Shown one piece after another: positions 8,561 through 58,071 of a stretch of 64,000 nt of DNA. The position numbers and the translations under genes are program-made. The stretch comes from Cyanidioschyzon merolae. Its lineage: Eukaryota. Below the pieces are notes generated by a model that made no database searches, was not told the DNA's origin, and saw only the letters and a program-made list of their open reading frames with translations. The stretch is from NCBI GenBank assembly GCA_000091205.1, contig AP006500.2; one strand, 5' to 3'. Positions within the stretch are counted from its first letter, which is position 1. Every line of letters starts with the position of its first letter.

Positions 8561-9750
8561 CTCACGGAAGACGACTGCAGGCTCCGGGAGGCTTATCGCG
8601 CCGGTCAAGCACCTTGTCAGATGTCGAGGCTCAACGCTGGTGCGTATGGGCGAACTCAAATACGTGTCCACCGGATCAAGGGCACGATGTAAGCTCCAAT
8701 GATCATGAGACGCAATGAATTAGTCAAGTCCTACATAATCGGTTCCCCTGAGGCGCAAAGAGACAGCAGCTTGGGCAGGACTGTGAATTGGTCGCTGTCC
8801 TGCGAGCCTAGTGAAAGAACGGTGTTGCTTCGTGGTCGTTTCGTGGACCCTGACAACCGAGACAAACCGCTCTGTCAATTCTTTCTCCGGAATTGTGTTC
8901 CGCCCCCCAGATGTGTGTACTGAATTGCTTTTTCACAATTTATACCATGCGCATTCGAAGTATGTTTATTTGAGGAAACAGAAATCTAAGTGAAAGGCAT
9001 GGACATGCAAGTCGGCAATCCTGGATGACAGTCAATGCCGGCTGCCGGAAACAATCCTCCTCTTGTCGACCATCGAGCGCAGAGGCGCAAGTGACGACGA
9101 AGACGAAGAGGGCGAATAGGCGAAAAACAGTGCCTCCCGACGGGACGATAACGAGACTTTTGTCGCACAGAGGGTACGGGTCTGAGAAATCCTTGCAAAG
9201 GTGCGTTCAACCGGTGTCAATGTACGCAAGGAGTTCGTGAGCCCAGACCTCAACGCCGCCGTCAATATCACACAATGTGTAGCACTGGAGACTAGACCCG
9301 CGGAGCCGACGCGAGCGAACTTTGCAGGGCATCCTCTCCCGCTCGATGTGTACAAGCAGAAACTAAAACCGATAGCAGTCGGACGGTCGAAAAGGGATGG
9401 GAGGCGTCTTCCAATGGTTTTCCATTTACCCTACACGGTCGTGGGACATTTTTTGTTTCACGAACATTTATGTATATTGGGGAATAATTGCATCAGAGAG
9501 GTGATTGTTGCTTGCTTCCGCTTGTGGTGATCCACGCCGACATCTCCACACCATCGAAGAACGATGTGCATCCGTCCGCAAATGACGCATCCCGCACATG
9601 CCTCCTGCTCCTACGATGACTGTCTATACGTTGACGATGCGAACCAAGCCAAAGACAAGTTTAAACAGAAAAACCTCGCTTTCGTCGCGCGATGTCGTTG
9701 ATATGCAGCGCCGGTCGGGATCACTCCTGTTCACGGGTACGCACCGTGCG

Positions 9751-37440: not shown

Positions 37441-40400
37441 TTACAGTGCATCTAGACGGAGCACCGTAACGGACACTTGCATGCCGTCCGTGGCGTCCTC
37501 CGAGGTGACTTGTGGACTCGTGCGCGCCGCCGTCTCTGGGACCTCGGCAGCTGCTTCCGTCAGCAGGCGCTCTATGGCCTCATCGGAGAACGTCTTGGAT
37601 GCGTTCTCGTCGTCAATGCTCAGTCGCACACCGTGGCGAACGAGTCCGCGCATGGTGGCCCGCGACAGCGTCTCACGATGGGTCGCGATCCACTGGAGAA
37701 TCCGCGGTAGCGGTGCCAGATGGAGCTGGATGAACTGACAGAGCTCACTTGCGTACGGGAGCGGATGGAAACCCAGCACTTCTTCCAGATTACCGATAAG
37801 GGTCTTGGCATCTACCAGCGCCTGGCTCACGCATTGAATGTCTACACTGGTGACGGGAATCTGTGCGATGCCGTCCTGAACGGCAACAAGTACGCCAAAA
37901 ACGCAGGCGCGCCACAATGGCTCCTCGGCATGCGCCGGTAGTCCTCGGGATTCGTGCAGCATGCGCAAACGAGCCGTTATCTGGGCTACATATGGACTAG
38001 CCCGCGAAACGGAGACCGCATCCTCATTCCCGCCTGCAGAGGCTTCTCCAAGCGTTTCATGCACAGCGCCTTCTGCCGACGGTGAGACCGGGCTCTGTCC
38101 CTGGGTAATAGACTGCCACCAGGGTGCCTTTTTCTGTTTCAACTGTTGAACGACGTTGCGCGTGATCTCTGCGGTATCCACGAGCGCCGGTGCCAGGGAA
38201 CGGTACAATGCCAGTTGCAGCGCATCGGCGAGGCCACGTAGCTGGTTCGCTCTACCAAGAGCCTCGGCGACAAACGCGTTTCGCCATCGGCTTTCCGGTC
38301 GGTATGCAACCTGTGTTTGTTCCTGAAAGGTGGCCGCTGTCTCCAGAGTCAGCGCAGCGACCTGTCCTATGGTCCAGGCCGACTCCACAGCGCAACAAAA
38401 CTTGCTCAAATTGAGTTCCGACCGCGGTCGTTGGAGCGCTGTTGACGACGCTGCACTGGATCCCGGTTCATGTAGAAAGTGTGCCAAAAGTGCTCGCTGG
38501 TACGCACTCAGTGCTGGCCGCAAGCTTTCATACTTTTCCAGTTGAACGAGACTACCGCCTAGAATACCCGTTGCCATGAAGCACGGCGCGTAGACGACAC
38601 CGAGCAGGTACATCGCAAAAAGTGCGATTTGCTGAATCGCTTCCGCAAATAGACCAGCTGGGGCAACATTTGCATATTCAGATGGTGCATACAGCATCGA
38701 TGCGAGCGTGCCAATGCATTCGATCCCAAATACCGATGCGCCCGTAAATGTATAGTCGTCGGGTATAGAATAACCCTCATCACGATGCAAGCGCTCCCAG
38801 ATAATAGACAGGAGATCTTCAACGCGCAAAGAGGCTAGCTCGTGGGTAAGCACCTTCACCACGAGGCACGAATCCGGATCCGCATCTGGTACTGCATACC
38901 AGGCGCGAATCGTCTCCCAGTAAGAACGCCAAGTCTCCGGTACAAAGCGATTCTGATCGAGCTGCATCTGGTTGCGCGTGTCAGTATTTCCCAGCGACTG
39001 AACGCTGATTGCTTGCCAGTCATTGGGAGTCGCAAATATCTCCATGAAGCGCGACTCAATATCACGTTTGAACAGATCAATATAACTCTTGAGGAGAGGC
39101 TTCACGATATTCTCGTGGATCGTAGCGAGCGGCAACGTGCGCTGCTTCCTCTGTCGAGTACCACGCAGGAGGCGTTCTGCATTCAGCTCCAAACTCGATG
39201 TGCGCACTACCGAGCCGTTCGGGCTTGCAGTAACCATTGAATGCTTCCTTGGTGCAGTCGCATCGAAGCTATAGATACCAGCGGCGCGTCCATCAGCGTC
39301 TTCCGGGAAGTGATCATCGGCTGCAATGGATATCCACTGTGTCTCCAGAGCGTGCAGCACCAGTTGGGAGCGCCAAAGCTCCGCCAGCGTCACTACAGGA
39401 TAGGTATCGTGTTCAGCGACAAGCTGATTCGCCATGAAATCGCAGTCCGCGTCGAGTCGAGCTTGCAGTGCCTCCCAAACGATGCTTCGAAATCGTTTGC
39501 TGATCCTGGGGTGTTCGAAAAGCTGTCGCACTGGGTAACAGATTGCTGAGAGAAATCCAGCCCAGCAGTCTAGAAACTCCCACGGATTCCGTGGTCTCGA
39601 GGCCAGTTCCCCACCAGATGGAGCGGTGTTGCTTGGCACATGTTGCGATTTTGGCGTCCGTGGTGCCAACGCGTTGGCATGGGCGCCTGCAGCCTGCCAT
39701 ACGTTCGTAAAGCTCGCAAGCAACGGCGACGCCACCGCAGCCTCTCTTTTGGATAACTCGTTTAAAGTCGCACCGGAGGCTTGCCTCCATTGTGCGCATT
39801 CGAGCGCCCTTGCACGAATCTCGGCAAGCACATGCTCCAAGGCATATGCGAAACGCTCGGCTAGGACCAACTCAGCGCCGAGATTCTCATAGGCGTTCCA
39901 GACGGCCTGGAATACTTCCGCATCGAACTTGCAACAGAGACCCTGCACCTGCTCGAACATGCACTGAAGCGATCGAGCGGCAAGGTCCATGAACACGTCT
40001 GAGAAATCTCTAAATATTCTTCCCTTTCGAACGACAGATCCAAGTTCTCTACGGAGAAGGCTCGAACGATACAGCAGATCGAATGACTTGCAAAGACGAT
40101 TCGCTTCATCATACTGATGCAGACGCAGCGCATCTCGCACTTCGTCTAAGAGCTGCTGCATCCGTCGAATAGTTTCAAGACTCTGTACAACCGAACGCAG
40201 AAATGAACGCTTGCTTACTTTGCGTTCGAATAGCTCTTCTGATACGTGCAGTTCTTTTCTTGAGCGACGAATAAGGTTCGAGTTTTCAGAAAGCGTCCCG
40301 AGTGCTTTCGACAAAGCGTCCGACACCAAATCCAGTGCGAGCGTTCGCTGCGCAACAGCTTCCGGGCCGGCCCGCAGTCGGACGTAGCGATTACTTCCCA

Positions 40401-41076
40401 AAGCCTGCGCTTGGTAGAGATGAGCCGTGTAACAGTCCAGCTGCTCGGTTGCTCGACCTAACTCATCAATGGCTTCGGTAAGGGCGCTCAAATTGATTAT
40501 CATTTTGCCATCAGCTCGTCGTCGAGATGCACGCATTAGAGCCTCCTGCAGCAAACTCGACGGTGTAACGCTTTCAATGACTTTGAGCTCGGACGCTTTT
40601 TCGTTGGACTCCTTGGCGCCGGCAGCGGCAACGGCACGTTCCACCGTGCTCAAGGAGACGTGCAACGACTTGAGCTGACGAAAAGACAGCTTTTTCGTGC
40701 CTCTCTCCGAACTTGCTGCTTGTCGGTTGCCGTCCTCGGTCGTGTCACTGTGGCGAGGCCGTTCGGGAACGACGGCAGCCGCTGTCGCTCGGGACTGGTT
40801 TTGCCGTGCATTGTAAGCGCGGCAAGTGCTCTCGTACTCAGAATTACAGTGCGAAAACGAGCCAGTGCCTACCGTGGAGCTGCCTGAACCGCCAACGGAT
40901 CCTAACAAACGTAACTCTTTCGCCAGAGGTTCGAACGGGCGTCCCGCAATGTGAAGCTGCTCTGCTGAGAACGAGCGACCGACCCGGAGCCCCCGGGAGT
41001 GGCGTGTTTTTTCGGAGTTCCACGAACCAACGTGCTCACCGGTTTCACGGGGCCGTTCGTGAAGAGATTCCATCAA
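37441..41076 (-). CDS. Large (1211 aa) hypothetical protein, mostly alpha-helical; weak resemblance to vesicle-tethering complex subunits (Vps54/COG-like)
   Basis: This is a 3.6 kb uninterrupted ORF with non-repetitive composition and predicted amphipathic helical repeats. I recognise no diagnostic catalytic motif. Confidence 0.4.
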   Translation of the reverse strand: MMESLHERPRETGEHVGSWNSEKTRHSRGLRVGRSFSAEQLHIAGRPFEPLAKELRLLGSVGGSGSSTVGTGSFSHCNSEYESTCRAYNARQNQSRATAAAVVPERPRHSDTTEDGNRQAASSERGTKKLSFRQLKSLHVSLSTVERAVAAAGAKESNEKASELKVIESVTPSSLLQEALMRASRRRADGKMIINLSALTEAIDELGRATEQLDCYTAHLYQAQALGSNRYVRLRAGPEAVAQRTLALDLVSDALSKALGTLSENSNLIRRSRKELHVSEELFERKVSKRSFLRSVVQSLETIRRMQQLLDEVRDALRLHQYDEANRLCKSFDLLYRSSLLRRELGSVVRKGRIFRDFSDVFMDLAARSLQCMFEQVQGLCCKFDAEVFQAVWNAYENLGAELVLAERFAYALEHVLAEIRARALECAQWRQASGATLNELSKREAAVASPLLASFTNVWQAAGAHANALAPRTPKSQHVPSNTAPSGGELASRPRNPWEFLDCWAGFLSAICYPVRQLFEHPRISKRFRSIVWEALQARLDADCDFMANQLVAEHDTYPVVTLAELWRSQLVLHALETQWISIAADDHFPEDADGRAAGIYSFDATAPRKHSMVTASPNGSVVRTSSLELNAERLLRGTRQRKQRTLPLATIHENIVKPLLKSYIDLFKRDIESRFMEIFATPNDWQAISVQSLGNTDTRNQMQLDQNRFVPETWRSYWETIRAWYAVPDADPDSCLVVKVLTHELASLRVEDLLSIIWERLHRDEGYSIPDDYTFTGASVFGIECIGTLASMLYAPSEYANVAPAGLFAEAIQQIALFAMYLLGVVYAPCFMATGILGGSLVQLEKYESLRPALSAYQRALLAHFLHEPGSSAASSTALQRPRSELNLSKFCCAVESAWTIGQVAALTLETAATFQEQTQVAYRPESRWRNAFVAEALGRANQLRGLADALQLALYRSLAPALVDTAEITRNVVQQLKQKKAPWWQSITQGQSPVSPSAEGAVHETLGEASAGGNEDAVSVSRASPYVAQITARLRMLHESRGLPAHAEEPLWRACVFGVLVAVQDGIAQIPVTSVDIQCVSQALVDAKTLIGNLEEVLGFHPLPYASELCQFIQLHLAPLPRILQWIATHRETLSRATMRGLVRHGVRLSIDDENASKTFSDEAIERLLTEAAAEVPETAARTSPQVTSEDATDGMQVSVTVLRLDAL

Positions 41077-41336
41077 AAGGTAGCATAATCAAGTCGGCAC
41101 AGCACGCACCAACAACGCCTTTCGAAAGAGAAACGTTGTCACCGGGCGTGTATAGTAGTGGCGAGTGACCTGCCCTAGACAAGAAGTCTCCAACTGAGGT
41201 GCAGACGCCTCTCCGTCTTTTTGGACCGGCCACCCACCACTTCTTCAAACTTTTTCTCATATAGTTCTACTTTGAGAGGTTTTCCAATAAAATTCTCTCG
41301 TATCAGCTCTGGAGGTCTATTCTCCAGCACCGCCTA

Positions 41337-41609
41337 TTTCCTTACATTGATAGCGGCGTTAAAGTCTCGGTTCACGAATTCCATACGTTTCTTGCCATCA
41401 CTGGTTGTACTTATTAGTGCAAGTAGTCCACGAACTTTCGCTCTCATTTCCATTTGCTCTTCCGTCAGCGGTCCGTACCATTTCATATCCTCAGGGCTCC
41501 TCTGGCACTGTTCCATCTCGACCCCCTGAAGTGTGCATCCCGGTTCATGGTGTGGATAAGACGTTCGAAACTCATCAACAGGTATCGTGACAAAACGCCG
41601 TGCGCACTC
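41337..41609 (-). pseudogene. TnpB/Fanzor-like gene, C-terminal segment (TS motif, Cys/His cluster, RuvC-III)
   Basis: My manual translation of the same frame after the TAG gives ECARRFVTIPVDEFRTSYPHHEPGCTLQGVEMEQCQRSPEDMKWYGPLTEEQMEMRAKVRGLLALISTTSDGKKRMEFVNRDFNAAINVRK*. The TS...C...C...RDxNAAxNI order is the TnpB/Cas12 C-terminal architecture. Confidence 0.5.
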
Positions 41610-41612
41610 CTA

Positions 41613-42542
41613 GTACGTTCTTGTCTTTGGAGCTGGAGTAGTCCCTTTTTGGATCTTCCAGCGCCCTGCTCTGTATGCTACTACGAGCCTCCGACTTTGA
41701 TCCTCTTTGAGGGCGCTCAGTTGATTGAAAAAGTTCGCGAACGCCCGCCGCTTACCGCAATATAAATTCATTCGCAAAAGAGCCCAACTGGGATTTGTAT
41801 ACTCCTCCCACAGTGCATCCCAATGAGGAACACGTACATTCATGAACTTCCGAAAAGCTTGTAAGCCCGCTCCTCGGCTCGTCACCTCGCTCAAAGCTTC
41901 CAGGTGATCCTTCATTCCTGAATTCCACGTAACAATTTTCTTCCTCACATTCATTATACCGGATTCTCGATAGTATCTCGCTCTCGAGAACCTCAATAGA
42001 CGCAAGTCTTTCTGACGTAAGTTGCCGTCAATGCCGTCTTCCCCACATTTGAGTGCGGCGATGGTAACGATATTCGTGTTCCCGGGGTCCGCGCCAACGA
42101 CCAAGTCGTTATCTTGCACTTTCTGTGTCGCAGGACCCGCCTGCTTCTCATCTTCATTCTTCGTCGCGGGCGGAGCTGGACGATCTGTCTTCAAGCGCCG
42201 ATTGTGCACACTCAAGGCTACTCCATCGGTTTCGATCATCCCAGCGAATACCTTTTGTTTGCTGACTTTGAGACGTTTGAAATCGAAGATATTCTTCCAG
42301 TACTTCTCCCGGTTTTCGCCGGAGAATCCCTCCTTGCTGACACCGAACTCGGGACTGATCTCGCTAATGATGCCGTAAAGGATTCTGGACTCGATAGTAA
42401 CAAAATGTGACTTGATGTTGCACATTGGAACCACGTTGAAGCGCTTCCCCATTAGGAACGCCTTCCGTCTCTCCCACTCTTCATTTTTTCCCTCAATCAG
42501 CTTCATCTCCGCCTTGCGCTCGAGTTCTCGACTCAGCGACAC
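41613..42542 (-). pseudogene. TnpB/Fanzor-like gene, central segment containing the RuvC-I-like motif
   Basis: The motif [19 protein letters not shown] is present, and the segment ends ...RRLVVAYRAGRWKIQKGTTPAPKTRTY. It terminates at an in-frame TAG (41610-41612) and continues in the same frame into the next segment. Confidence 0.5.
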
Positions 42543-43152
42543 GAAATACCGCAGGATAAAGGGATGCCATCCTTTTCATAATTGATACCCTTTTTTGTGG
42601 ATGCATCAGCCCCAGAACCGCACGGTGCTCTTGAATAGCCGCACAGATCACAGAAGCTTTATTCTCTCCCTCGCATGATGTCTTCTTGTGGACGAATTCC
42701 ATTTCCTGTTCATTCTTACTATCGTTCGTGATGCTATCGATGATGGCCCATATCCTTTTGCGAGAGAGGCCCGGGTACAGCGCAAAGATGAAGCCTATCA
42801 TGAAGCGTTTGAGGTTCATAGTCATATGGTTCTTCCGGTACGTGAGGTACTTCGTCGCTCCGTAGGTGTAAATATCCCGGTTACCCATGTATCGAGTACC
42901 CTCGACGCGGAATTCCACGAAATTTTCGTAGAGGGCGTGCACTGGCTCATTATCCCTCCGCGCCTGCCGTGTACCAACCATCAGGTGGCGAACGAAGGTC
43001 TTGTTGAAAATTCCTCCGGAACCTCGACTGTTTTGATTTCCGTCGCGTTGCGATACATCTCCTTCACCAAATGCATTAGCCCTTACGAAGCGTGTATAAT
43101 ACTCATGGATTACGAATCGACACGGTTTCCGATGGCTTCTCGCATCTTCTCC
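42493..43152 (-). pseudogene. TnpB/Fanzor-like gene, N-terminal segment (frame 1)
   Basis: The open frame runs from 43152 to 42493. It overlaps the next segment by 50 bp in a different frame (a frameshift or short intron). A Lys/Arg-rich putative NLS region lies further upstream in ORFs 43110..43358 and 43165..43419. Confidence 0.45.
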
Positions 43153-44423
43153 TTATACGGATCTTTAATATGTCCAAGAAGACAGGCTTTCACGACCATC
43201 TCGTCGTACTGTCGTCTTTCTTGCAGTCTTCGACGTAAGGCCTCCCCCTTTTGCCTCTTTTCCGCTTCCTTTTCCTCTCGACTTGGCACTGTTTCTTGTT
43301 TTTTTTTTCTGGCAGCCGGCGACAATTGGTCCCCATGATCGTCGACTTGATTTTTCAATTCTTTCCTTTTTAATTTTTGAATATGAACGCTCTTTGAAAG
43401 CCTCTACTATAACCAGCAAAAAATCACTTAAAAACTTTTGTTTGAGGTTTGAAACACAATCGAATTGAAAAACTATACTTTGCTACGACTTTAACGCAAA
43501 GACCACTTGTAAGTTACAGCAACGCGCTGATGATCTGGATCTCATTCCCCGTCAACGGCGACGTACACATCGTGAAAGCCTGATATGGAGGTGCGTGTAT
43601 CGACCGTGCTTAATAGAAAAGAACAAAAACAAACAATTGACTAGCAATTCGATGATATTTTCGTTCAACTCTCATGGTATATGTTAAAAGGAGGAAAAAC
43701 TTTCCATGTTGTCGAAAGCTTACGATCTAGGCGGAAGGTCCCGCGACCCTGACGCCTTTGCCGGGCTCGCGCTTGGTGCCCCCAACAATGACTGGTGCTT
43801 TGGTTAGATATGAGCAGCTCGTACACAACACACTTTATTCTGGGACTAGGAGCGGGTAGACTGCCTCTGGGCGTCGCACTGGTCGGGTTGCTCTCCTTGC
43901 ACATCGCTTCGCGCTGCTCCAAAAGGTACGTCTTTCTGCGCAGTTTGCATGCTCCGAGAATGACAATGTATCCCGACTCCGCGTCGAATGGACTACGCCT
44001 CGAGCCGACGCCCTCAGCTGGTATAGCAAAGCAGTTCTATCTCCATGCTGGATGCGCACCAGCCGTAAAAGCGCTTTGGCGGGTGCATCAAGGCAGGTAC
44101 TCGGCGTCAGAATAGAACGTACAAAAGGACCGGTACATCCGAAAGGAAGTGCAAGTGATGAAACTTGGAGGTAGGGTGCAGCATGATAATCGATTTTCCA
44201 ATTATCAATATCCGTCCCGCAATCTGGGATCATCCGTGGTCAACGTAAGCGGTTTGTCATTGGAAACAAAATCAACGCAAAAGACGCCATTGGGTTTGTG
44301 CACGCGTTTCGGGACGCCTCAGCTTTCTTGTTGTTTGTGAACAGTTTCTCTAGTATCCGGTTCTGCTTCTTTGCTTTTTTGCTGTCATCCCGCTATCTCA
44401 GAAAGTTCTGAGTCGAGCTGTGT

Positions 44424-45167
44424 TTGTGTGTGCGTGCGAGCTCCTGCATGGAAGCACCGACAGCTTCCAGCGATGCTGCTCTATCGAGCCCGGTGGAGTC
44501 GCGGGACGCGCGGCTGCCCGCGGACTCCCTCGAGGCCACAGCTGCGCTGCTGGAGGCACTCTCACGAGTAAAGGAACTGGAAGGAGAACTGGCCAACGAA
44601 CGCCGTCGGCGTATTGCTTTGGAAAACGAAGTGCAACAGCAGAAAGCGCTGAACGTACGCATCCAGCAGCAGCTGGAAGCCGAAGAAGAGGCCCTAACGA
44701 ACCGCCTGAACAAACGCCTCAGCGAGCTTCGTTTAGAGAAAGAACAGCTCGCTCGTGATATTGAACGAGAGGAGGAGTACTTAACTAATACGCTCCAGCA
44801 GCGCTTGGAGCAACTGAAAAAGGAGAAAATCGACATGGAGAACGCTTTAGAGGCAGAGCAGGAGGCTATTGTCAACCGCCTCCAGCGCGAAGTACAGAAA
44901 CTTCAAAAGGAAAAAGCAGCGTTGGAAAAGCAGCTGAGTCAGTATGCACGCTCGAGCTTGGATCTACCGCCCGCAACACCGAGTGACTCCGAAAGCGAGC
45001 GCGACATTGTTCGCAGGCGGCGTTCATTCAGCCGCGACTCCAGTCCACGTGTATCCGCTGCCGCTTTCCGGGCACGTCTGGAGCAGACTCGTCTAGCCGG
45101 CCATAGCAGTTCAAGTGCGCACACCACACCACCTGGTACGCCGCCTCGTCCGAAAGATCAAGCATGA
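44424..45167 (+). CDS. CCDC6-like coiled-coil protein (DUF2046 family)
   Basis: The characteristic periodic blocks are EEEALTNRLNKRLSELRLEKEQL, EEEYLTNTLQQRLEQLKKEKIDMENALEAEQEAIVNRLQREVQKLQKEK and a Ser-rich C-terminal tail. Together they match the CCDC6 family pattern (EEEFLTN.L.+KL..L..EK..LE..LE.EQE.(Q)VN+L). Confidence 0.55.
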   Translation: MCVRASSCMEAPTASSDAALSSPVESRDARLPADSLEATAALLEALSRVKELEGELANERRRRIALENEVQQQKALNVRIQQQLEAEEEALTNRLNKRLSELRLEKEQLARDIEREEEYLTNTLQQRLEQLKKEKIDMENALEAEQEAIVNRLQREVQKLQKEKAALEKQLSQYARSSLDLPPATPSDSESERDIVRRRRSFSRDSSPRVSAAAFRARLEQTRLAGHSSSSAHTTPPGTPPRPKDQA

Positions 45168-48120: not shown

Positions 48121-49899
48121 GAAATGACATACGCAGTGAGCTTTCAGCATGGGCTTGAAAAATAATCTTCAAGGAGCAACGTCGGGATACTTTCCTTGTC
48201 AATCCCCGTACGCGAAATGCCGCATCTACCAGTTGCCTTGAGACACGAAGATCGAAAACATGAACCATGCGTGATTCGAGCTTGCATTATGTGAGGAAAA
48301 GAGAAGCGTCGAAAGTTGTACATTTGAATTGGATAGTGATACAGCCTGTTTTACGAACTCTTGTTCAATGGCGTCGCGAATCATCTTGACTCCGGTGACG
48401 TAAAGTAATCCAACGGCAAAGCGTGGAAGGAGCCGCTCCTGAAATACGTCCGAGAATCCTCAAACGATCATTGAATATGTAAGCCCTAACTGCTGCACTT
48501 CGAATGGCGACGCTGATCATCAAACAATTTCGAACAAAAATCTCAAGCAGGACATAGTGAGCAGTTCAACGTTCCATGGATATCTGACTCACGTGGCACA
48601 TATGCGAGTGGGCTCTCGGGATTGCTGTTGGCCAGCAGCTCATTCAATACGTATGCTTCTCGACGCTTGCCGACGCGTTGCGTCAAATATGAAGCGCTTG
48701 GACATGGAAGTACTCTCCTAGCCGCCGATCAAAACAGCGCCAGCGAAGATCCCTCTTTTGACTCACCAATATTGCACCTAACAAACGCAACGAAAGGGCC
48801 GCTGCTGCAGCGGCCACCACACGCTTGGTGCTGGGGGACACACGACGCTGGCTTCCTTGCTGGCGATGTTTCCGTATTTCATGACGAAGAACTACACGAA
48901 GAAAATCATAAAGTTCGTGTCGCCTTTGCGCTTTCCATAACGGAAAGCAGGCAGATGGTCCACCTGGCTGGCCCTGGTATTGGATCAGTTCCCCTAAGGT
49001 CTTTGTCAAGAATTGCAAGCGGATCGGAAGCGTTCTAGCTGAGGATCTCGATGCTCGCGCATAAGAATATCAACCCCATGCAACATATGGGCGCCGCATC
49101 AAACATACCTGGCCTGTCTTTCCTCCTGGTGTCAAGTCGCAGAACTTGAATGTCCCTCCTTGCATAAAAAAGCGCGAGAGAAAAGCGTGAGTATACGCGA
49201 CGCTTCCCGACGGACTCCAATCCTTGGTTTGCACGCGGCAAGTACTTCACTGTTGATCGGGCTATGTGCAGCAAGCGATGTGCGCCTAACAGACACAGGG
49301 TACCAGCAGCCTCCCGCAAGTCCTGCGGTAGCTGGCAACAACCTACATGGTATCGCCCTCGCTGCTCAGCAGCAGCGCGCCAATTGAAAGCACCTATGGC
49401 CCGCTTCTGCAGCAGACGCGCTCTGTGGTAAAGCAAAGCCGTTCTGACTCCTTGCTACGACCGCACCAGCGATATAGGCGCTATCGGGGCTGCTCAGGGC
49501 AGGCACGCAGCCCAAGATAGAACGTGGAAAATACCTAGGAGGGAACGTATCGGTCGTGGAACTCATACGGAACGATGGACGTTTGGCCAATCGATACTAT
49601 AAAGCCCTCAATTGGTAAACCTGGGTCTCTCTCTCCCTGTATATATGTACATATGCGTGTGGGTGTCAAAGATGTTTCCGACAATAAAAAGAAACAGAGC
49701 ATCTGTCGAGAGCCCCTGCATGCCTCGTCGAAGCGTCTCCCAGGAAAGCGCCCGTGTCATCGATCAGGAGGGATTACTTGGGGGTGCTTTGGTAGGCACC
49801 CCCGAAATGTCGCGACGCGCGCTGTTGCCCAGTCGCAATCTCGATTCGTGAACGTACCTACGCTCTAGATTCTCTTCTGGGTCGAAAACTCACTCAGTT

Positions 49900-52800
49900 A
49901 TGACGGGAGAGAGTGTGAGTGTGCAATACCAGCCCGACGGAGTTGCCATCATCGTTTTTTCTGCTCCTCCAGTGAATGCGCTTTCGGTGAACCTACGGCG
50001 TTTGCTGGCTTTGAACGTCGCGAACGTTGTTGCTGATCGGCGGGCGAAGGCGATCGTGCTGTATGGTGGCGAGAGCACCTTCTCGGCCGGGGCTGACGTC
50101 GGCGAGTTCCCTGAAAAGCTTGGAAGTGCGGAGAATATTATCTCTTTGGATACGGAGCCGTTCAAGACGCTGCTAGAGACTAGTCCGAAGCCGACTGTGG
50201 CCTGTATCACAGGCACAGCGCTTGGCGGAGGCCTGGAGCTCGCCCTCGCGTGCCACTTTCGCGTTGCTCTATCGGATGCAAAGCTTGGACTTCCGGAGCT
50301 CAGACTGGGCCTTATCCCCGGTCTTGGTGGTACCCAGCGTCTTCCCAGACTGATCGGCGTTGAGCCAGCACTCGATATGATTATGCACTCGCGAATCATT
50401 GACGGCGAGGAAGCGCATCGCTGCGGGCTCGTCGACCGTCTCGTTCCAGCGAGTCGTCGAGAGACGTTACTGCGAGAGGCCTGTGCTGTAGCCCTGGAAG
50501 TCGCCTCAGATCCTCAAAAGATGCCGCCACCGCTATTAACCCGAACGGACAAGCTTGGGAATGCCGACGTTGAGAAAATTCGCAGCAAGTATCTGCCGAG
50601 AGCTGTAGAAATGCGGCAGAAAACTGGTCAGATCCAGTTTGAAAGCTGTGTCCGAGCTGTCCTCGAAGGCATTGAGCGTGGTGGTGGCGATGCTGGCTGG
50701 GCACTAGAAGCGGAGCTTTTTCGACAGTGCGCGGCGTCGGAGGCATCACGAGCTCTCATTCATGTCTTTCTTGCCTCGCGAAGAACAGTGACGAATTTTA
50801 AGGCAGAGCCGCACCTTCATGAGCCTCGGACAGTTGCGGTGATCGGCGGTGGCCTCATGGGAAGCGGGATTGCAGCATGTATCCTACAAAATGGTGGACG
50901 CGTCGTCTTGAAAGAAGTCAATGAAAATGCCCTTGCTGCAGCTATACAGCGTATTGAGGCTATCTTGAGCCGCGCCAAGGTCGACACCGCGGATGCCAGG
51001 CGGCGACTTCAAGGCACGATCGAATTCGACAAAAAGCTTTTCAGTGATGTAGACCTCGTCGTCGAGGCAGCCGTCGAAAATGTACAAGCGAAGCAAGGCA
51101 TCTTTCGATCGCTGGCGGAATGCACGGGACCACACTGCATTCTGGCGACCAACACCAGCACGATCAACTTGGACTTGATCGGTGAAGCGATTCCGCAAGT
51201 CCATAAGGAAGGGCGTCTGATTGGTGCACACTTCTTCAGTCCTGCACATGTTATGCCACTCCTGGAAATTGTACGTGCGAACCGCACCAGAAACCGCGCA
51301 GTGCAGATGGTGCTTGCGTTTGCGAAACATCTGCGGAAAACACCAATCATTGTGGGCAACTGCGCCGGTTTTGCCGTGAACCGAATGTACTTCCCCCAGA
51401 CCCAAATGGCGTTCTTTCTCACTGAGTACCTCGGTATTCATCCATACGACATCGATCGTGCATGTCAAGAGGTGCTTGGTCTGCCAATGGGACCCTTCGG
51501 CCTTGCGGATCTCGTCGGTCTCGACATCTGTGATTCTGTGAACCAGGTTTTTAGCATGTCGTATCCCGAGCGAGTTTGTAGCCTCAGCATCGCGGGCAAG
51601 TTGATTGAGATGGGCAGAAAAGGTCAGAAGAGCGGTGCTGGCTTTTACCGCTACGGTGCGGATCATCGCAAACCGATCGAAGATAGGGAGATGTTGGATC
51701 CGCTCCTTGCCTCTATGACGCCGCCACCGCTGCGCGAGCCATTAACGCCGTTAGACATCGTGCAGATGATTTTCTTCCCGGTCGTCAACGAGGCCATGCG
51801 GGTTCTCGAGGAGCGTATTGCCGACAAAGCAGCTGACCTCGACGTTGCATCGGTGCTTGGCTACGGTTTTCCGGCCTATCGAGGTGGCCTGCTCTACTGG
51901 GCTCAGCATCTTCCCGGCGGGCCGCGTCTCATCCTGGAGCGCCTGCGCGAATGGGATACACGATTCGGTACGCAGTGCCCGCTATTCGCTCCGTCGTTTG
52001 CCCTCGAATGTGCGCTAAGGTCAACTGAACCTGTGCTGGAGCGGCCTCCTCGTCCTCGTTTAGCGACAGGCTCGGACGACGATATCGTGTTCGTGGCCGC
52101 TGTTCGCACCGCGATCGGAAAAGCGGGGCGCGGCCTCCTGAAGGATACGCTCCCCGAAGACATGCTTGCGCCGCTCATCGGGGCGCTCTTGGATCGATCA
52201 GCTGTGAAACCCGCCGAGGTCGGAGACGTTATCGTCGGAACCGCCCTACCTCGTGGTGATGCGGCTGCTGTGAGTTTGCGCGTCGCTGCGCTGTGTGCTG
52301 GCCTTCCTGATACCGTTCCAGTGCGGCTGGTAAATAGGCTGTGTGCGTCGGGGTTGCAGGCTATCGCTGACGCTGCCGCTGCCATTCAGCGAGGCGATTA
52401 TGGTATCGCTATAGCCGGGGGTGTGGAATCCATGTCGATGAATGCTATCCAGTTAAGTCTGGAGCGCAGAAGTCACCGCCTAGCGAGTTGCGCAGCAGCA
52501 GAGGATGCCTATCTCAGTATGGGAGACACCTCGGAAAACGTTGCAGCGCGCTTTGCGATCAGTCGAGCAGCGCAGGATCGCTTCGCAGCTTCGAGTCATG
52601 CTCGAGCGTCACGTGCATCGCTTTCGGGACGCTTCGAGCGAGAAATCCTTCCCATTTCGACACAAGTGTATCCCACCAGGAAAGCGGCGAAGCAAGCAGA
52701 CGGGAACCTCTCCACGGCGGAACGCGCGCCCGCAGTCCCACAACCGGTTGTGGCGCAACGCGATGAGGGTATTCGCTTGGGCGTCACCACTGGAGCGTTG

Positions 52801-53337
52801 GCCAAGCTCCCGCCAGTCTTCCGAAAGCAGGGTACCACTACAGCTGGGAATAGCTCCCAAGTCAGCGATGGAGCGGCACTGGTACTCTTAATGAAGCGCA
52901 GCGAGGCACGGCGGCGGGGTCTCCGGCCGCTGGGAACGTTCCGGGCCTTTGCGGTTGCAGGCGTGCCGCCAGCAATCATGGGCATAGGACCCGCGGCCGC
53001 TATTCCGAAGCTACTTTCGCAGGCTGGAGTCGAAGCTAATTTGATTGATCTATACGAAATCAATGAAGCATTTGCCTCTCAGGCGGAATACTGTGTCCAG
53101 AAACTTGGACTCAACCGAGACGTTCTCAATGTGAATGGCGGTGCAATTGCACTCGGTCATCCGTTGGGCATGTCCGGCGCTCGTCTCTGTGTGACGCTCT
53201 TGCACGAGCTTGCTATCCGGGAGGGGCGCTATGGCGTGGTCAGTATGTGTGTTGGTACCGGGATGGGAGCCGCTGCTCTACTGGAACGATGTGAAGATGA
53301 CGGTTTTGATGAGCGACGGTTGCGAGCAGCACTTTAA
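49900..53337 (+). CDS. Fatty-acid beta-oxidation multifunctional enzyme with enoyl-CoA hydratase, 3-hydroxyacyl-CoA dehydrogenase and 3-ketoacyl-CoA thiolase fused in one 1145-aa polypeptide
   Basis: The crotonase fold reads CITGTALGGGLELALACHFRVA...PELRLGLIPGLGGTQRL. The HAD Rossmann motif is VAVIGGGLMGSGIAACIL, with NTS and HFFSPAHVMPLLEIV. The thiolase carries N-terminal DIVFVAAVRTAIGKAG, the active-site Cys NRLCASGLQAI, NEAFASQ, NVNGGAIALGHPLGMSGAR and CVGTGMGAA. There is no stop or frameshift between the FadB-like and FadA-like parts. Confidence 0.8.
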   Translation: MTGESVSVQYQPDGVAIIVFSAPPVNALSVNLRRLLALNVANVVADRRAKAIVLYGGESTFSAGADVGEFPEKLGSAENIISLDTEPFKTLLETSPKPTVACITGTALGGGLELALACHFRVALSDAKLGLPELRLGLIPGLGGTQRLPRLIGVEPALDMIMHSRIIDGEEAHRCGLVDRLVPASRRETLLREACAVALEVASDPQKMPPPLLTRTDKLGNADVEKIRSKYLPRAVEMRQKTGQIQFESCVRAVLEGIERGGGDAGWALEAELFRQCAASEASRALIHVFLASRRTVTNFKAEPHLHEPRTVAVIGGGLMGSGIAACILQNGGRVVLKEVNENALAAAIQRIEAILSRAKVDTADARRRLQGTIEFDKKLFSDVDLVVEAAVENVQAKQGIFRSLAECTGPHCILATNTSTINLDLIGEAIPQVHKEGRLIGAHFFSPAHVMPLLEIVRANRTRNRAVQMVLAFAKHLRKTPIIVGNCAGFAVNRMYFPQTQMAFFLTEYLGIHPYDIDRACQEVLGLPMGPFGLADLVGLDICDSVNQVFSMSYPERVCSLSIAGKLIEMGRKGQKSGAGFYRYGADHRKPIEDREMLDPLLASMTPPPLREPLTPLDIVQMIFFPVVNEAMRVLEERIADKAADLDVASVLGYGFPAYRGGLLYWAQHLPGGPRLILERLREWDTRFGTQCPLFAPSFALECALRSTEPVLERPPRPRLATGSDDDIVFVAAVRTAIGKAGRGLLKDTLPEDMLAPLIGALLDRSAVKPAEVGDVIVGTALPRGDAAAVSLRVAALCAGLPDTVPVRLVNRLCASGLQAIADAAAAIQRGDYGIAIAGGVESMSMNAIQLSLERRSHRLASCAAAEDAYLSMGDTSENVAARFAISRAAQDRFAASSHARASRASLSGRFEREILPISTQVYPTRKAAKQADGNLSTAERAPAVPQPVVAQRDEGIRLGVTTGALAKLPPVFRKQGTTTAGNSSQVSDGAALVLLMKRSEARRRGLRPLGTFRAFAVAGVPPAIMGIGPAAAIPKLLSQAGVEANLIDLYEINEAFASQAEYCVQKLGLNRDVLNVNGGAIALGHPLGMSGARLCVTLLHELAIREGRYGVVSMCVGTGMGAAALLERCEDDGFDERRLRAAL

Positions 53338-53934: not shown

Positions 53935-56900
53935 TCATTCTGTGATCAACAGGCGGGTCAGTCTCGCTTGAGCGGGTCGTTCTCCTGCCGCTCATGATCC
54001 CAAAATAGGGCCTTCCAAGTGCTATCGACATGACTGTCTCTCCATCAGTGTACGCCAGTCCATAGATGCTCAAAGAAACGGTATCAGAAAACCCACTGGA
54101 TGCGAATTTTCCATACCCTTGATATGAGCCGTGGTGAAGCGACATGGATGGGCAAAGAGAAAAAAAGGTGCCTCCCCAGGAGACCGTCACGAGCTGGACA
54201 ATTTCGATTCCGCATTGATAGGCGAACGCTTATGACAGGAGCGACCGGTACTCGCCTCTCTCGGTAACAGCTCTTTCGTGAAAAACGGAGGATCTAAACG
54301 TAGATACGCAAAGCGGTGCCAAAAATTCCTCTCGTAAAGCCTCGACCGGTGAGCGTAGCGACGACAACATCAGCCCCAGCGGCGATTCAAGCATGTAGTC
54401 GCCTGAGTCTCGGCAAACAGGCAGACTCAAGCAACACGTCTGCCTCCCTTCTTCGAAGCACTCTGTGGCCTCTGCTTCTCGCGTTATTCTGTCCTGCGGG
54501 TAGGCCACGTTGCTTGCTGTGACGCAAAGGCGCTCCACGAGTGCGCAGCTGAGACGAGCGTTGAGCTGGTGTTCGCTTCAGCCTGGAAGTGCACGCTCAG
54601 TCCAGTTGGAAGCGTCTTCTCTGTCCTCCGTCGCCATGCTTTCCCTCAGGATGCGTTCCATAAAAACGTTCGGATGCGTGACGCTGTCCTTGGACAAGTC
54701 GTTTTCAGTCTTCGTCAGCGTTGAACGACTCTGGTGCTGAGCGGGTCGCCTGCGGGGAGGGATCGGTGAAGCGCGCCTCAGGCGTTTGGCACGCTCGCGG
54801 CTGAGAAGCTCGTGGAAAAGGCAGCTGCGGGATCGGAAACATATATACGCGGGGAGGCAAGTTGCTGGCTCGCCGTCCATCCACGGGGTCTGACTGCCGG
54901 TGTAAGAAAATGGAAGTGGAGTGCGACGTGCACATCCACGCTACCCGCCACGAAAGGAGAATGCGAAGCAACCACCTGACAGAAAAGAGAAGGATCCCAG
55001 CCGCAAAGAGGACGACGAGAGTCAGGAAGGAAACCCTGCGCACTGGAAAGGCCAGTCCGAAACCAGCGCCTACACGTCGGTGCCAGAACGCATCAACGGA
55101 AAAAATTCTCCGAGTACGTGAGATGCCCAGGGCTATTAGGTATTGCGTAGAATGTGGTTGACGGAAGGCCCGCCTAGCTCTCCCCGAATGGATGCCCCTC
55201 GTGCAGCAACTGGCGGGAAGGGTTTCGGAGGCAGCGCTGCCAGCAGTTCGCATTCGTAGGGAGTTTTTGGTCAAACCCTCGAGCGACAGCACTAGGAATG
55301 CTCCGCTCCGAGCATGCCAGCGGGCCTGTTCGTGGTGTCGTTGACCAATACACACGCTGGCCGGCATCCGTTTCTGCGCTGCACTACATGGTTGCTCGGC
55401 CCATGGACAGCGTAGGTGCCAGGAAAAGTTTCGCCCAAACCTCAGAACCTATAGCCAAGAGCGGGTCCGTGGCGACTACCCTACGAGGCGCACCCCAGAG
55501 GCGTTGTACTCGTTGCGTCCACAGCGTTGTGGTCGACGAAATGTTGGCGACTGACGCAAGCGGCTCTTGGGATGTCCGTGGAGGCACGTGACGAGCTGGC
55601 TCCGGACGAGAAGGTGCTGGAAGCGAGCTCGGAGATGTCGCATCGAGAACGAGCGACGCTCCAGATCGTCCGAGCTCATGGAGTAGGTTTCTGTTCCGGA
55701 GCTGGGCACGTCGTCTCGGAAGGATTACGCGGGCGTTGACCTGGCCTAACTTGCATCCTGCGCTGCTAGGTTTTCGCGAACGCGGCGCTCCACCGCAAGG
55801 CAGACCCTCTGGTCGTATGTGAGCGCCTTTGCATCCTCAAACCCCTGGTCGATACGGTCCCCGCATTTCGGGGCAAAGCCCATGATACCACCGTGCATAT
55901 TTGTGTGGTGTACGACGTCCTCAGTGGTCTACGATGTGTGCGCACGAGCAGCTAGGGGGCACTCTGCCTATTTCGGGCAGAGCGTTGGCGGGGCTCGTTC
56001 AACGCCACTCGTTGGCTGGGAAAACACGGAAAGCGATGTACAGGGGCCTTGGGGACGCGCACGGCACATCAAACAGCATGCACTTTGCGAAACCGCGGCC
56101 CGATGGGAGCAACGAGACTCATATTCAACCGCTTACGGAAAACGAACGTGAAGGCTTCGTGGTGCGCGTGGATGCCGTTTCTGAGGGCGCCGTGGCCGTC
56201 ACCGTGCCCGTTCGTCACGGGGCAGCGCCAGAGACCTGAACGGAAAGCAAATGAGTCTGCTCCACGCCTCCAGGGCTCGGTATCATCCGGAGTTGGACGT
56301 GAACGACGCCAGCAGGCGTACCAACTCGTGGAATGACGACGTAAAGACCTGTCGTGACGCGCTGAGTACGGTATCGGGCAAAAGGAGATGCACTGCGCAC
56401 CTCATTCATAACGGGTATGAGCGACTAGATCGCTCATGCGGACGAGCCATGGCAGAGGAACGCGGGACCGAGCTCGAGTCTCCAACAGTCGCAACCGCTC
56501 GCGGGCACGAGGCGGGTATTCGCAAGCTTCCTCAAAGCACTGGAAACGGAACTGGCCGATCGGTTGCATCTTATAAAGATAGTGCATGGCGGTGGACGCG
56601 CTCTAGTTGCAGAACTGGACTGTCGTCGATAACGCACAAGGGATCCGCGAACCGGCACTGAAGTGCTCTCAGTGATGAGCTCTGGACGAGATTCTCACAT
56701 CGCGAGCACAGAGACACGCTGAAACTGCCGCTGGAGACGATTTGGAAACGGAGCCGGACGTATGAGATGACGTACGCTGAGTTCATTGAGCTCCAGGTGG
56801 CAATGCAGTCACAGTTGAGACGCTTGCTGTGGAGTGTCTCCATCACGAACGGGAAACGCGTCCAGTTTCTGAACCGAGATTTGAGCGCCCACATCAGCAT

Positions 56901-58071
56901 CTGGAACTGCGTCGTTCTTCAGGAGCGTCCATCGGCTTTACTTCAGGCGAGGCTTCGATTCGATTGTTTAGTATGCAGTGTGGGTATTGTGCTGGAATGC
57001 TGCGGACTCTCGATGAAAAACATCATGTATCATCAGAGCGGCGATTAAGTCCCCGCTTGGAGCAAGCCACTTGTATGGTACGGTCTGCACTGTATCAAGG
57101 CTGGACTGCCATATACCTTCGCCACGAACAATGCTCGTGGGTAATTGTCGAACACTCATCGTATTCCTTACTTGGGTATTACGGATGAGACTCCGTACAA
57201 AGCAATACGCCTGTTTGATCATCGTATTTGACTCGTTTGCATCGAGTTGCTACTGCTGTTTTACACAGAAGCTTGCATAGTTTTATCGTGCATTGCCATG
57301 TGCGGTCGATGCGCTGGCTCACTGAAGTACCTGCGTCCATGCAGTGTAGACGCGATGCACCTCCAGGACCAGCGGCAAGGCAAACGACGCAGCGCTGTGT
57401 CATTCACGACTAGGAAGAGGCTTTGCACTGCTCGCAGCTGGTGTCCCAGGTCTTTGGATGCTAGGATGCTACAACTCTGCTCCAGATGTGTGCGTTCCCA
57501 AACCAGGATTGTAACGTGAAATGAGCTGCTCTCGCGGACCTTTCTGCTTCATAGAGCCCATAGTGCACCCGAGTGACACCAATCAATGTCAATCGTTTCA
57601 CACAAGATCCCAGGTCAGACGGAACGACTTTGCTCCAAAAATGACGCATACTTCGATGCGTACAATCAGAGTCCCACCGGTGCACTGGGAGACGTTTCAG
57701 GGCTACATACGAAAAAGCGCCGGCAGCTGAAGCTCGCACCGCCCACACCGTAAACCTATCACTTGGCGCCTTGTGGCGTCACCTGAAAACAAAGCAGTTG
57801 CGGCGAGCTCAATGCACCACGGTTGGCGCTAATGGCTATGGTAGGCACGGTGACGGAACGCAGAGCTCCGCAGCGGAAGGGCGGGTCTCTCGGTCGAACA
57901 GGAAGCCGCGCATATTCTTTACAGTGGACGCAGCTCATACCGTGTTTCGCAGTGCTGGCACGGATGCCGCGAAAGGACGCGGGTACGTAGCATAATGATT
58001 CAGATCAGACGAAAGGAGGAGCCTCGCCATCAAACGGTCGCTGGAACCTAACGCGACTCCTGTAACGTTGT

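Follow-up and report, generated by a model that had tools for sequence, protein, structure and literature searches.

The window analysed here is a 64-kb stretch of chromosome 18 of Cyanidioschyzon merolae 10D, as established by an exact-sequence match of eight of its long open reading frames (ORFs) to 10D proteins. Our subject is the region between the divergently oriented genes CMR375C and BAM82569, where an initial annotation, a motif reading of the raw sequence, had placed a gene of the TnpB/Fanzor-like nuclease family at 41200-43720. We find that a larger element, 41114-44262 on the minus strand, takes up 3,149 of the 3,374 bp that separate the two start codons, and that it is a degenerate copy of CMe-1A, a family of mobile elements that carry a gene for Fanzor1, the homologue of TnpB/Cas12 in eukaryotes. 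BAM82568 (CMR375C), BAM82569 and BAM82570 (CMR378C) are consecutive accessions; hence, no gene is annotated in 41073-44448, and none of the Fanzor-like ORF fragments was found as a record in the protein collection. The neighbours are host housekeeping genes, and viral genes are not adjacent. The locus is laid out as follows, in positions of the window:

37441-41073, minus strand: CMR375C (BAM82568), exact match
41114-44262, minus strand: CMe-1A element, full-length but degenerate, Fanzor1-bearing, without terminal inverted repeats (TIRs); placed by consensus alignment and pile-up
41114-41177, minus strand: 3' non-coding end, by analogy a candidate for the right end and the omega-RNA scaffold
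41114-41137, minus strand: terminal hairpin, AACGTTTCTC-TTTC-GAAAGGCGTT, intact in this copy
41175-43358, minus strand: Fanzor1 (CMe-1) pseudogene, from degenerate start to ancestral stop; the 734-aa consensus ORF maps here
43625-44262, minus strand: 5' non-coding module, equal to consensus positions 1-635 and, according to Bao & Jurka, to TE-N2_CMe; inner boundary approximate
44448-45167, plus strand: BAM82569, a CCDC6-like gene

Only 40 bp lie between the 3' end of the element (41114) and the ATG of CMR375C (41073), which follows downstream on the same strand. Because this distance is so short, the promoter or 5' untranslated region (UTR) of CMR375C is probably located inside the element.

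Identity and borders of the element

Bao & Jurka (2013, Mob DNA 4:12; PMC3627910), who named Fanzor1 and Fanzor2, listed a single Fanzor1 family for C. merolae, CMe-1A, with a 3,169-bp consensus and, by their count, about 150 copies in the genome, each about 80% identical to the consensus. They described the family as lacking TIRs and recognised target-site duplications (TSDs), and as encoding the 734-aa CMe-1 protein in a single exon; the 5' 635 bp are 95% identical to a separate element, TE-N2_CMe, present in about 70 copies. We took the published consensus from Additional file 2 of that paper and aligned it with the window. Consensus positions 3-3169 match 44260-41116 at 83.3% identity over 3,181 columns with 17 gap openings, and in a global alignment the consensus ends fall at 44262 and 41116. 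Two T residues beyond the published 3' end are conserved in nearly all copies, which moves the end of the element to 41114.

The same borders emerged independently when we piled up 71 related loci from metagenomes, which are 77-85% identical to the window copy. Homology begins abruptly at 41097-41148; it runs to 43556-43574 in most loci, or to 44176-44273 where the 5' module is present; the module is common to only a subset of copies (about 16-23 blast pieces in the pile-up). A search of the element ends for TIRs found no inverted repeat between 41114-41137 and 44240-44262. The window copy therefore resembles the CMe-1A consensus in its end-to-end collinearity, its dispersed, multicopy presence in the same genome, its single-ORF layout, its 635-bp 5' module and its lack of TIRs, and its divergence of about 17% is in line with the identity of about 80% reported for the family. 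It differs in the lesions described below and in the two additional T residues at the 3' end.

Pfam recognised no family for ORFs in the 5' module or on the antisense strand of the element, and there is thus no candidate for the associated transposase that the initial annotation had proposed to look for. We also considered a Replitron or Helitron affiliation, since the element ends in a hairpin and has no TIRs, and set it aside: no Rep gene was seen, and Replitrons were not detected in red algae (PMC10288648).

Placement of the CMe-1 protein in Fanzor1

A homologue search returned 53 proteins, all of them from metagenome (JGI, ENA) or Logan assemblies. The best, P0001, has 752 aa and is 59% identical over 94% of the query, and others reach 83% over shorter stretches. 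When P0001 was used as a tblastn query, it covered 43289-41283 of the window in three frame pieces at E = 0, and the motifs read from the window are thus not a matter of chance. In two distant members with 25-27% identity, P0052 and P0053, Pfam recognises Cas12f1-like_TNB (previously named OrfB_Zn_ribbon) above its gathering threshold. An exhaustive profile search retrieved 5,278 related cluster representatives, indicating a large superfamily; a second, alignment-based homologue search was saturated with close fragments and added almost no new diversity.

We searched the PDB with hmmsearch, using a family profile built from eight members. The sole convincing match among solved structures was SpuFz1, the Fanzor1 protein of Spizellomyces punctatus (PDB 8gkh), with E = 5.1e-15 over 360 profile positions, and the alignment places DPG of the CMe-1 family on DPN, DEF on DEY, and NRD on NRD. 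A model of P0001 predicted by AlphaFold2 from an alignment of 26 sequences reached a mean predicted local distance difference test score (pLDDT) of 71.3 and a predicted template-modelling score (pTM) of 0.66, with a disordered, repeat-bearing linker at residues 375-471. In a Foldseek search of the PDB with this model, the top seven matches were all Fanzor1 chains (SpuFz, PpFz and GtFz; probability 1.00, E = 5e-15 to 2e-12, template-modelling (TM) score 0.50-0.71 normalised by target length), and the next matches, to Cas12 variants, Cas12f and Fanzor2, had E values of 0.02 or more. The WED-REC-RuvC-TNB fold of Fanzor1 is thus found in a protein that is 59% identical to the conceptual product of the window copy. 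We place the CMe-1 family in Fanzor1 on the basis of homology, fold and the classification of the original authors. The initial annotation was right about the family, given the profile match to SpuFz1, the exclusively Fanzor1 top folds and the collinearity with CMe-1A, and the motifs that it listed, from the GxDxGxxN block to NRDFNAAINV, are all present on the minus strand:

43212-43313, minus strand: K/R-rich N-terminal stretch, from the three-frame translation
42093-42167, minus strand: repeat unit of about 26 aa (78-79 nt), in single copy, in the linker before RuvC-I
42054-42101, minus strand: RuvC-I, a 16-residue motif with GADPGNTN, Fanzor-type DPG; catalytic Asp codon 42087-42089
41658-41678, minus strand: canonical RuvC-II site AYRAGRW, within RRLVVAYRAGRW; no Glu; family consensus AYGAGRW
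41559-41579, minus strand: VDEFRTS, within IPVDEFRTSYPHHEPGC; alternative catalytic Glu codon 41571-41573
41343-41372, minus strand: RuvC-III, NRDFNAAINV, in NRDFNAAINVRK; catalytic Asp codon 41364-41366

Yoon et al. (PMC10711439) gave as Fanzor signatures a RuvC-I motif with DPG and a Glu that precedes the first CxxC by six residues, and according to PMC10530073 Fanzors have Pro or Gly in place of the canonical RuvC-II glutamate, with an alternative Glu about 45 residues downstream. The window copy has the DPG, and at the canonical RuvC-II site it carries an additional Gly-to-Arg change relative to the family. Its alternative Glu lies 34 residues downstream of that site, and the spacing VDEF-RTSYP-H is as in Fanzors. 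In alignment A1, the Asp and Pro of RuvC-I, the Glu of VDEF, and the D, N, A, A and N of RuvC-III, which includes the RD motif of Fanzor1, are all invariant. To judge from motif and spacing, DPG, DEF and NRD would correspond to the SpuFz1 metal ligands D383/N385, E541 and D606 (PMC10432273). All three catalytic codons are intact in the window copy. The initial annotation saw no RuvC-II glutamate and suggested that the copy may be catalytically dead. The copy is indeed dead, through stops and frameshifts, but the argument was built on the wrong feature, because the absence of the canonical Glu is the rearrangement that is normal in Fanzors and the alternative Glu is present.

The repeat unit ahead of RuvC-I varies in number among copies, from one in the window and the published consensus to five, and produces a spike of blast coverage at 42089-42168. 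Repeated linker units were also seen in P0001, and lie at 7221-7376 of metagenomic locus L001 and 6178-6482 of L023.

Of the proteins compared, SpuFz1 (PDB 8GKH, 9CEU-9CEZ; Saito et al. 2023, PMC10432273) shares with CMe-1 homology over WED, REC, RuvC and TNB, with a fold match to the P0001 model at E = 5e-15 and a TM score of 0.70 normalised by target length. Both have DPx in RuvC-I, a relocated Glu (DEF or DEY) and RD in RuvC-III. However, sequence identity is only 14-15%, and the four Cys that form the CCCC zinc finger of SpuFz1 are all missing from CMe-1. Unlike CMe-1A, Spu-1 elements carry inverted repeats of 30 nt. Activity and omega-RNA are demonstrated for SpuFz1; for CMe-1 they are only inferred. 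TnpB of IS200/IS605 and IS607 (e.g. ISDra2) likewise has a split RuvC domain, and its gene, too, occupies the 3' side of an element that lacks TIRs and in which the right end is predicted to specify a guide RNA. It differs from CMe-1 in typically having D-hydrophobic-G and the canonical RuvC-II Glu, where CMe-1 has DPG and the alternative Glu (PMC10711439); moreover, CMe-1 has no TnpA partner, is 734 aa long, and has a long REC-like region, a K/R-rich N-terminus and a eukaryotic host. With DPG, the alternative Glu, no other ORF recognised by Pfam and a eukaryotic genome, CMe-1 does not belong with prokaryotic TnpB. Cas12f and other miniature type V proteins share a distant RuvC/TNB fold (Foldseek E = 0.02-1) and the Cas12f1-like_TNB match of P0052 and P0053, but the similarity is weak, and CMe-1A is transposon-borne and has no CRISPR array.

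Decay, base composition and age of the window copy

Relative to the consensus ORF, we identified eight changes in the window copy, of which seven are disabling:

43356-43358, minus strand: lost start codon, ATG to TTG; both consensuses have ATG
43110-43112, minus strand: in-frame stop 1, TAA; Tyr in relatives
43083-43085, minus strand: in-frame stop 2, TAA; Ser in relatives
43008-43012, minus strand: frameshift 1, a 1-nt deletion at about 43011; tblastn frame change at 43008
42556-42576, minus strand: frameshift 2, an 11-nt deletion at about 42575 that restores the original frame
about 42177, minus strand: 12-nt deletion, in frame and not disabling
41610-41612, minus strand: in-frame stop 3, TAG; Lys in relatives
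41334-41336, minus strand: in-frame stop 4, TAG; consensus TGT (Cys)

The region of the start reads MKKQVDD in a 34-copy consensus, MEKEVED in the published consensus and LKNQVDD in the window. Programmed frameshifting, which an upstream ATG in another frame and a poly-A run might bring to mind, was rejected, as the in-frame ATG of the consensus has merely mutated to TTG here. At the other end, the relatives and the consensus run about 52 residues beyond stop 4, continuing as CAVLEKRPPE...NFVGQPLKVELYEKK..., and the ancestral stop is the TAG at 41175-41177. The placement of RuvC-III three residues from a natural stop, which had been taken as a likeness to TnpB, is therefore an artefact of the nonsense mutation in a Cys codon (TGT to TAG). 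Similarly, the three ORF fragments reported by the initial annotation do reflect a broken frame, but the lesions are more numerous than three fragments imply. With the start lost, four nonsense mutations and two frameshifting deletions, the copy has no functional Fanzor1 ORF and makes no Fanzor protein.

A rival reading, suggested by the splice-aware translation that the initial annotation proposed, is an intact, functional gene whose frame breaks are introns. Introns do occur in Fanzor genes of other eukaryotes (PMC10530073), and the three catalytic codons are intact. However, homology to the relatives and the consensus runs uninterrupted through every stop, each of which stands opposite a sense codon rather than an intron-like insertion, and the frame changes coincide with the 1-nt and 11-nt deletions. 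Furthermore, the start codon is TTG, the consensus ORF is a single exon, and no protein is annotated. The C. merolae genome as a whole has only about 27 introns. We regard an intron-containing, functional gene as scarcely credible.

Decay is also widespread and old. Two metagenome contigs, L041 (99.5% identical) and L039 (98.8%), show synteny with 10-12 kb of the window. The insertion is present in both, all four stops are shared, and the alignment of P0001 falls into frame pieces with breaks at the same places. The lesions thus predate the divergence of these strains. Nearly all environmental copies (loci L001-L073) are likewise pseudogenes. The locus that encodes P0001, L001, has an 819-codon stop-free stretch over the whole gene, and L004 has one of 505 codons that leaves out the N-terminal part.

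The low GC content of the locus had been described as a marked AT-rich island and attributed to recent horizontal arrival, for example from a giant virus. The drop in GC is real but modest: the element has 48.5% GC, the whole window 54.9% and the published consensus 52.3%, and the profile runs at 0.43-0.51 over about 41000-43800 and at 0.55-0.60 on both sides. Apart from composition, recent transfer can draw on the occurrence of Fanzors in giant viruses (PMC3627910). Against it, the copy is 17% diverged from the consensus and is one of about 150 dispersed copies, the orthologous insertion with the same stops and frame breaks is present in the two environmental strains, and the element sits among host housekeeping genes; neither low divergence, nor absence from relatives, nor foreign neighbours was found. 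The extra AT is accounted for by the composition of the consensus and by an excess of GC-to-AT changes. Among the substitutions that separate the copy from the consensus, 246 are GC-to-AT and 130 are AT-to-GC, which per site is 0.150 versus 0.087, or 1.7-fold. The island thus reflects a slightly GC-poor family and AT-biased decay rather than recent transfer, which we consider very improbable.

We are highly confident that 41114-44262 on the minus strand is a fixed, old CMe-1A pseudogene copy, one of about 150, that makes no Fanzor protein. Nothing that we found contradicts the CMe-1A identification. The identity, family membership, decay and age of the copy are shown here; the RNA-guided mechanism of its ancestor is inferred. 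The family itself bears the mark of selection. In comparisons of copies with the consensus, substitutions per site at codon positions 1, 2 and 3 are 0.093, 0.079 and 0.145, indicating that the protein was under purifying selection during part of the diversification of the family, in keeping with a remark on long-lasting coding capacity in PMC3627910.

The 3' end, the zinc finger and the spread of CMe-1A

All copies terminate in ...GGCGTT, and their flanks diverge at once beyond this point. The last 24 nt form a hairpin that two subfamilies keep in different registers, GGCGTCGTTCGA-CTT-TCGAACGGCGTT and AACGTTTTTC-TTTT-GAAAGGCGTT. As a separate observation, the first six bases of the 3' flank show a weak bias, B-G-K-T-G-Y: of 37 flanks, 25 have G at position 2 and 23 have G at position 5, which may reflect either a preferred target or an imprecise end. 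A T-run at the 5' junction is a further lead to a candidate target motif.

Several caveats attach to the Fanzor1 identification and to the predicted guide-encoding right end. Pfam had no match for the four ORF fragments or for the stitched 679-aa conceptual protein, and phmmer with the stitched protein against the PDB returned only noise, so that a family profile was needed to reach SpuFz1. The fold was predicted for the intact relative P0001, not for the conceptual product of the window. The zinc finger expected of Fanzor1, the OrfB_Zn_ribbon (TNB), is absent both from the copy and from the family consensus. At the 3' end, 81% of cells pair in hand-specified helices, but the covariation is not beyond that of shuffles, and the end is not more conserved than the ORF; the 62-nt 3' non-coding part is 24% substituted, compared with 13.6% for the ORF. 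Other searches of this end were also negative. For the 3'-terminal 112 nt, RNAalifold found no consensus structure and a consensus energy close to zero, because two hairpin registers and indels misalign; folds of single sequences were no better than shuffles (z = -1.4 to +0.2); and Rfam had no match for the 3' end.

The loss of the zinc finger is complete. The window reads YPHHEPGC after VDEFRTS, where the first CxxC is expected, and no CxxC is present; hence the reading of VDEFRTS as the entry to a TnpB zinc finger had the segment and its position right, but not the finger. All four Cys of the CCCC finger are replaced, by H, P, L and a non-Cys residue in the window and by H, L, L and a non-Cys residue in the CMe-1 consensus, which reads TSYTHHELGC...RGLLALVSTTSDGKK in this region. 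PF07282 had no match in the window and scored only 12 bits with P0001. The loss extends well beyond this family: among the 117 top representatives of the exhaustive search in which both flanking motifs are present, 85 lack both Cys pairs, and the sequence typical of representatives P0171-P0319 is DEFRTSK....RGLLWC.ST...KFVNRD. The CCCC finger was counted as part of the Fanzor/TnpB motif by Bao & Jurka (PMC3627910) and is present in SpuFz1 and ISDra2 TnpB (PMC10432273), and 'many', not all, Fanzors are described as carrying it (PMC10711439). We found no discussion of its loss from the CMe-1 clade in the Fanzor papers that we consulted.

Fanzors are known to perform omega-RNA-guided RuvC cleavage next to a short target-adjacent motif (TAM) (PMC10432273, PMC10530073). 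By homology, the 3' end of the element would be transcribed into an omega-RNA that an active CMe-1 protein would bind, and the resulting ribonucleoprotein would cut guide-matching DNA beside a TAM. Cleavage would take place at a single RuvC site made up of the Asp of DPG, the relocated Glu of VDEF and the Asp of NRD.

Part of the relic might have been put to use, with its 3' end serving as promoter or 5' UTR of CMR375C, or with its omega-RNA being used in trans by intact CMe-1. Either would be compatible with an old pseudogene copy. The closeness of the end to the ATG on the same strand, the near-complete filling of the intergenic region by the element and the intact terminal hairpin are all in keeping with such exaptation. 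On the other hand, the 3' end shows neither added conservation nor covariation, its substitution level being the higher one given above, and we judge exaptation to be unlikely.

The old, fixed CMe-1A relic is not alone in the window. The initial annotation had presented it as a rare instance and had asked for a search for additional copies; besides the published copies and the 71 related metagenomic loci, we found three further Fanzor1-family relics within the 64 kb. They are listed here with a fragment of the 5' module and the gene downstream of it:

1190-2261, plus strand: weak Fanzor1-like relic, matched by P0049 residues 480-696 (E = 6e-8) and P0320 residues 64-179 (E = 2e-5)
8891-9409, plus strand: CMe-1A-like relic, internally deleted (consensus 802-961 and 2854-3082, about 68% DNA identity); tblastn finds a C-terminal stretch RD.NAA.NI..C..LE.RP at 9153-9338
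49411-49531: about 115-120 nt, 73-79% identical to the CMe-1A 5' module (consensus 139-251, TE-N2_CMe-like), about 370 bp before the point where BAM82571 starts
49900-53337: BAM82571, a fused fatty-acid-oxidation protein, exact match
55581-57000, plus strand: older, much more diverged relic with stops, matched by P0049 residues 228-696 (27-30% aa identity, E = 4e-16) and by P0001 (E = 2e-13)

The metagenomic loci also vary in architecture. Many copies begin at consensus position 640-670 or so, with an inverted fragment of the 5' module (within 60-282) about 120 bp upstream, as on the 5' sides of L014, L017, L020, L023 and L031. TE-N2-like modules also occur 56 bp beyond the 3' ends of Fanzor copies, and one locus joins consensus 2-636 to 2239-3169 (copy-architecture coordinates: L020 3698-4047, L033 1859-2503 and L023 9663-11259). 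Given these core-only starts, inverted modules and module-joined loci, the published CMe-1A may be a composite of a Fanzor core of about 2.5 kb and TE-N2_CMe, or the two may insert side by side. In addition, L005 (923-1018) and L036 (1234-1329) each contain a solitary 96-nt stretch from the very end of CMe-1A (consensus 3073-3168), with unrelated sequence in front, in both cases 730-750 bp upstream of the core of another copy. By analogy with the 'ghost' elements of S. punctatus, these solitary ends may be ORF-less derivatives that retain the right end alone.

The family, its host and its Fanzor1 gene have been known since 2013, and the biochemistry of Fanzors since 2023-2024; as a dead relic of a known family, the window copy itself has little discovery value. 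It is useful as a calibration case, in which a motif reading of raw sequence identified the family correctly but over-read rarity, recency and the missing Glu. For annotation, it means that the whole intergenic region from CMR375C to BAM82569 is an unannotated CMe-1A relic. It also points to two under-discussed matters, the absence of the zinc finger from the clade and the mechanism by which CMe-1A is mobilised. The signature of selection, the number of copies, the lack of TIRs, recognised TSDs and a transposase gene, and the 3'-terminal hairpin together suggested to us a tentative reading, to which we give only a small chance of being correct: that zinc-less Fanzors are active RNA-guided nucleases that spread their own element by homing or copy-back without a dedicated transposase, and that relics such as the one upstream of CMR375C could supply guide RNAs or regulatory sequence.

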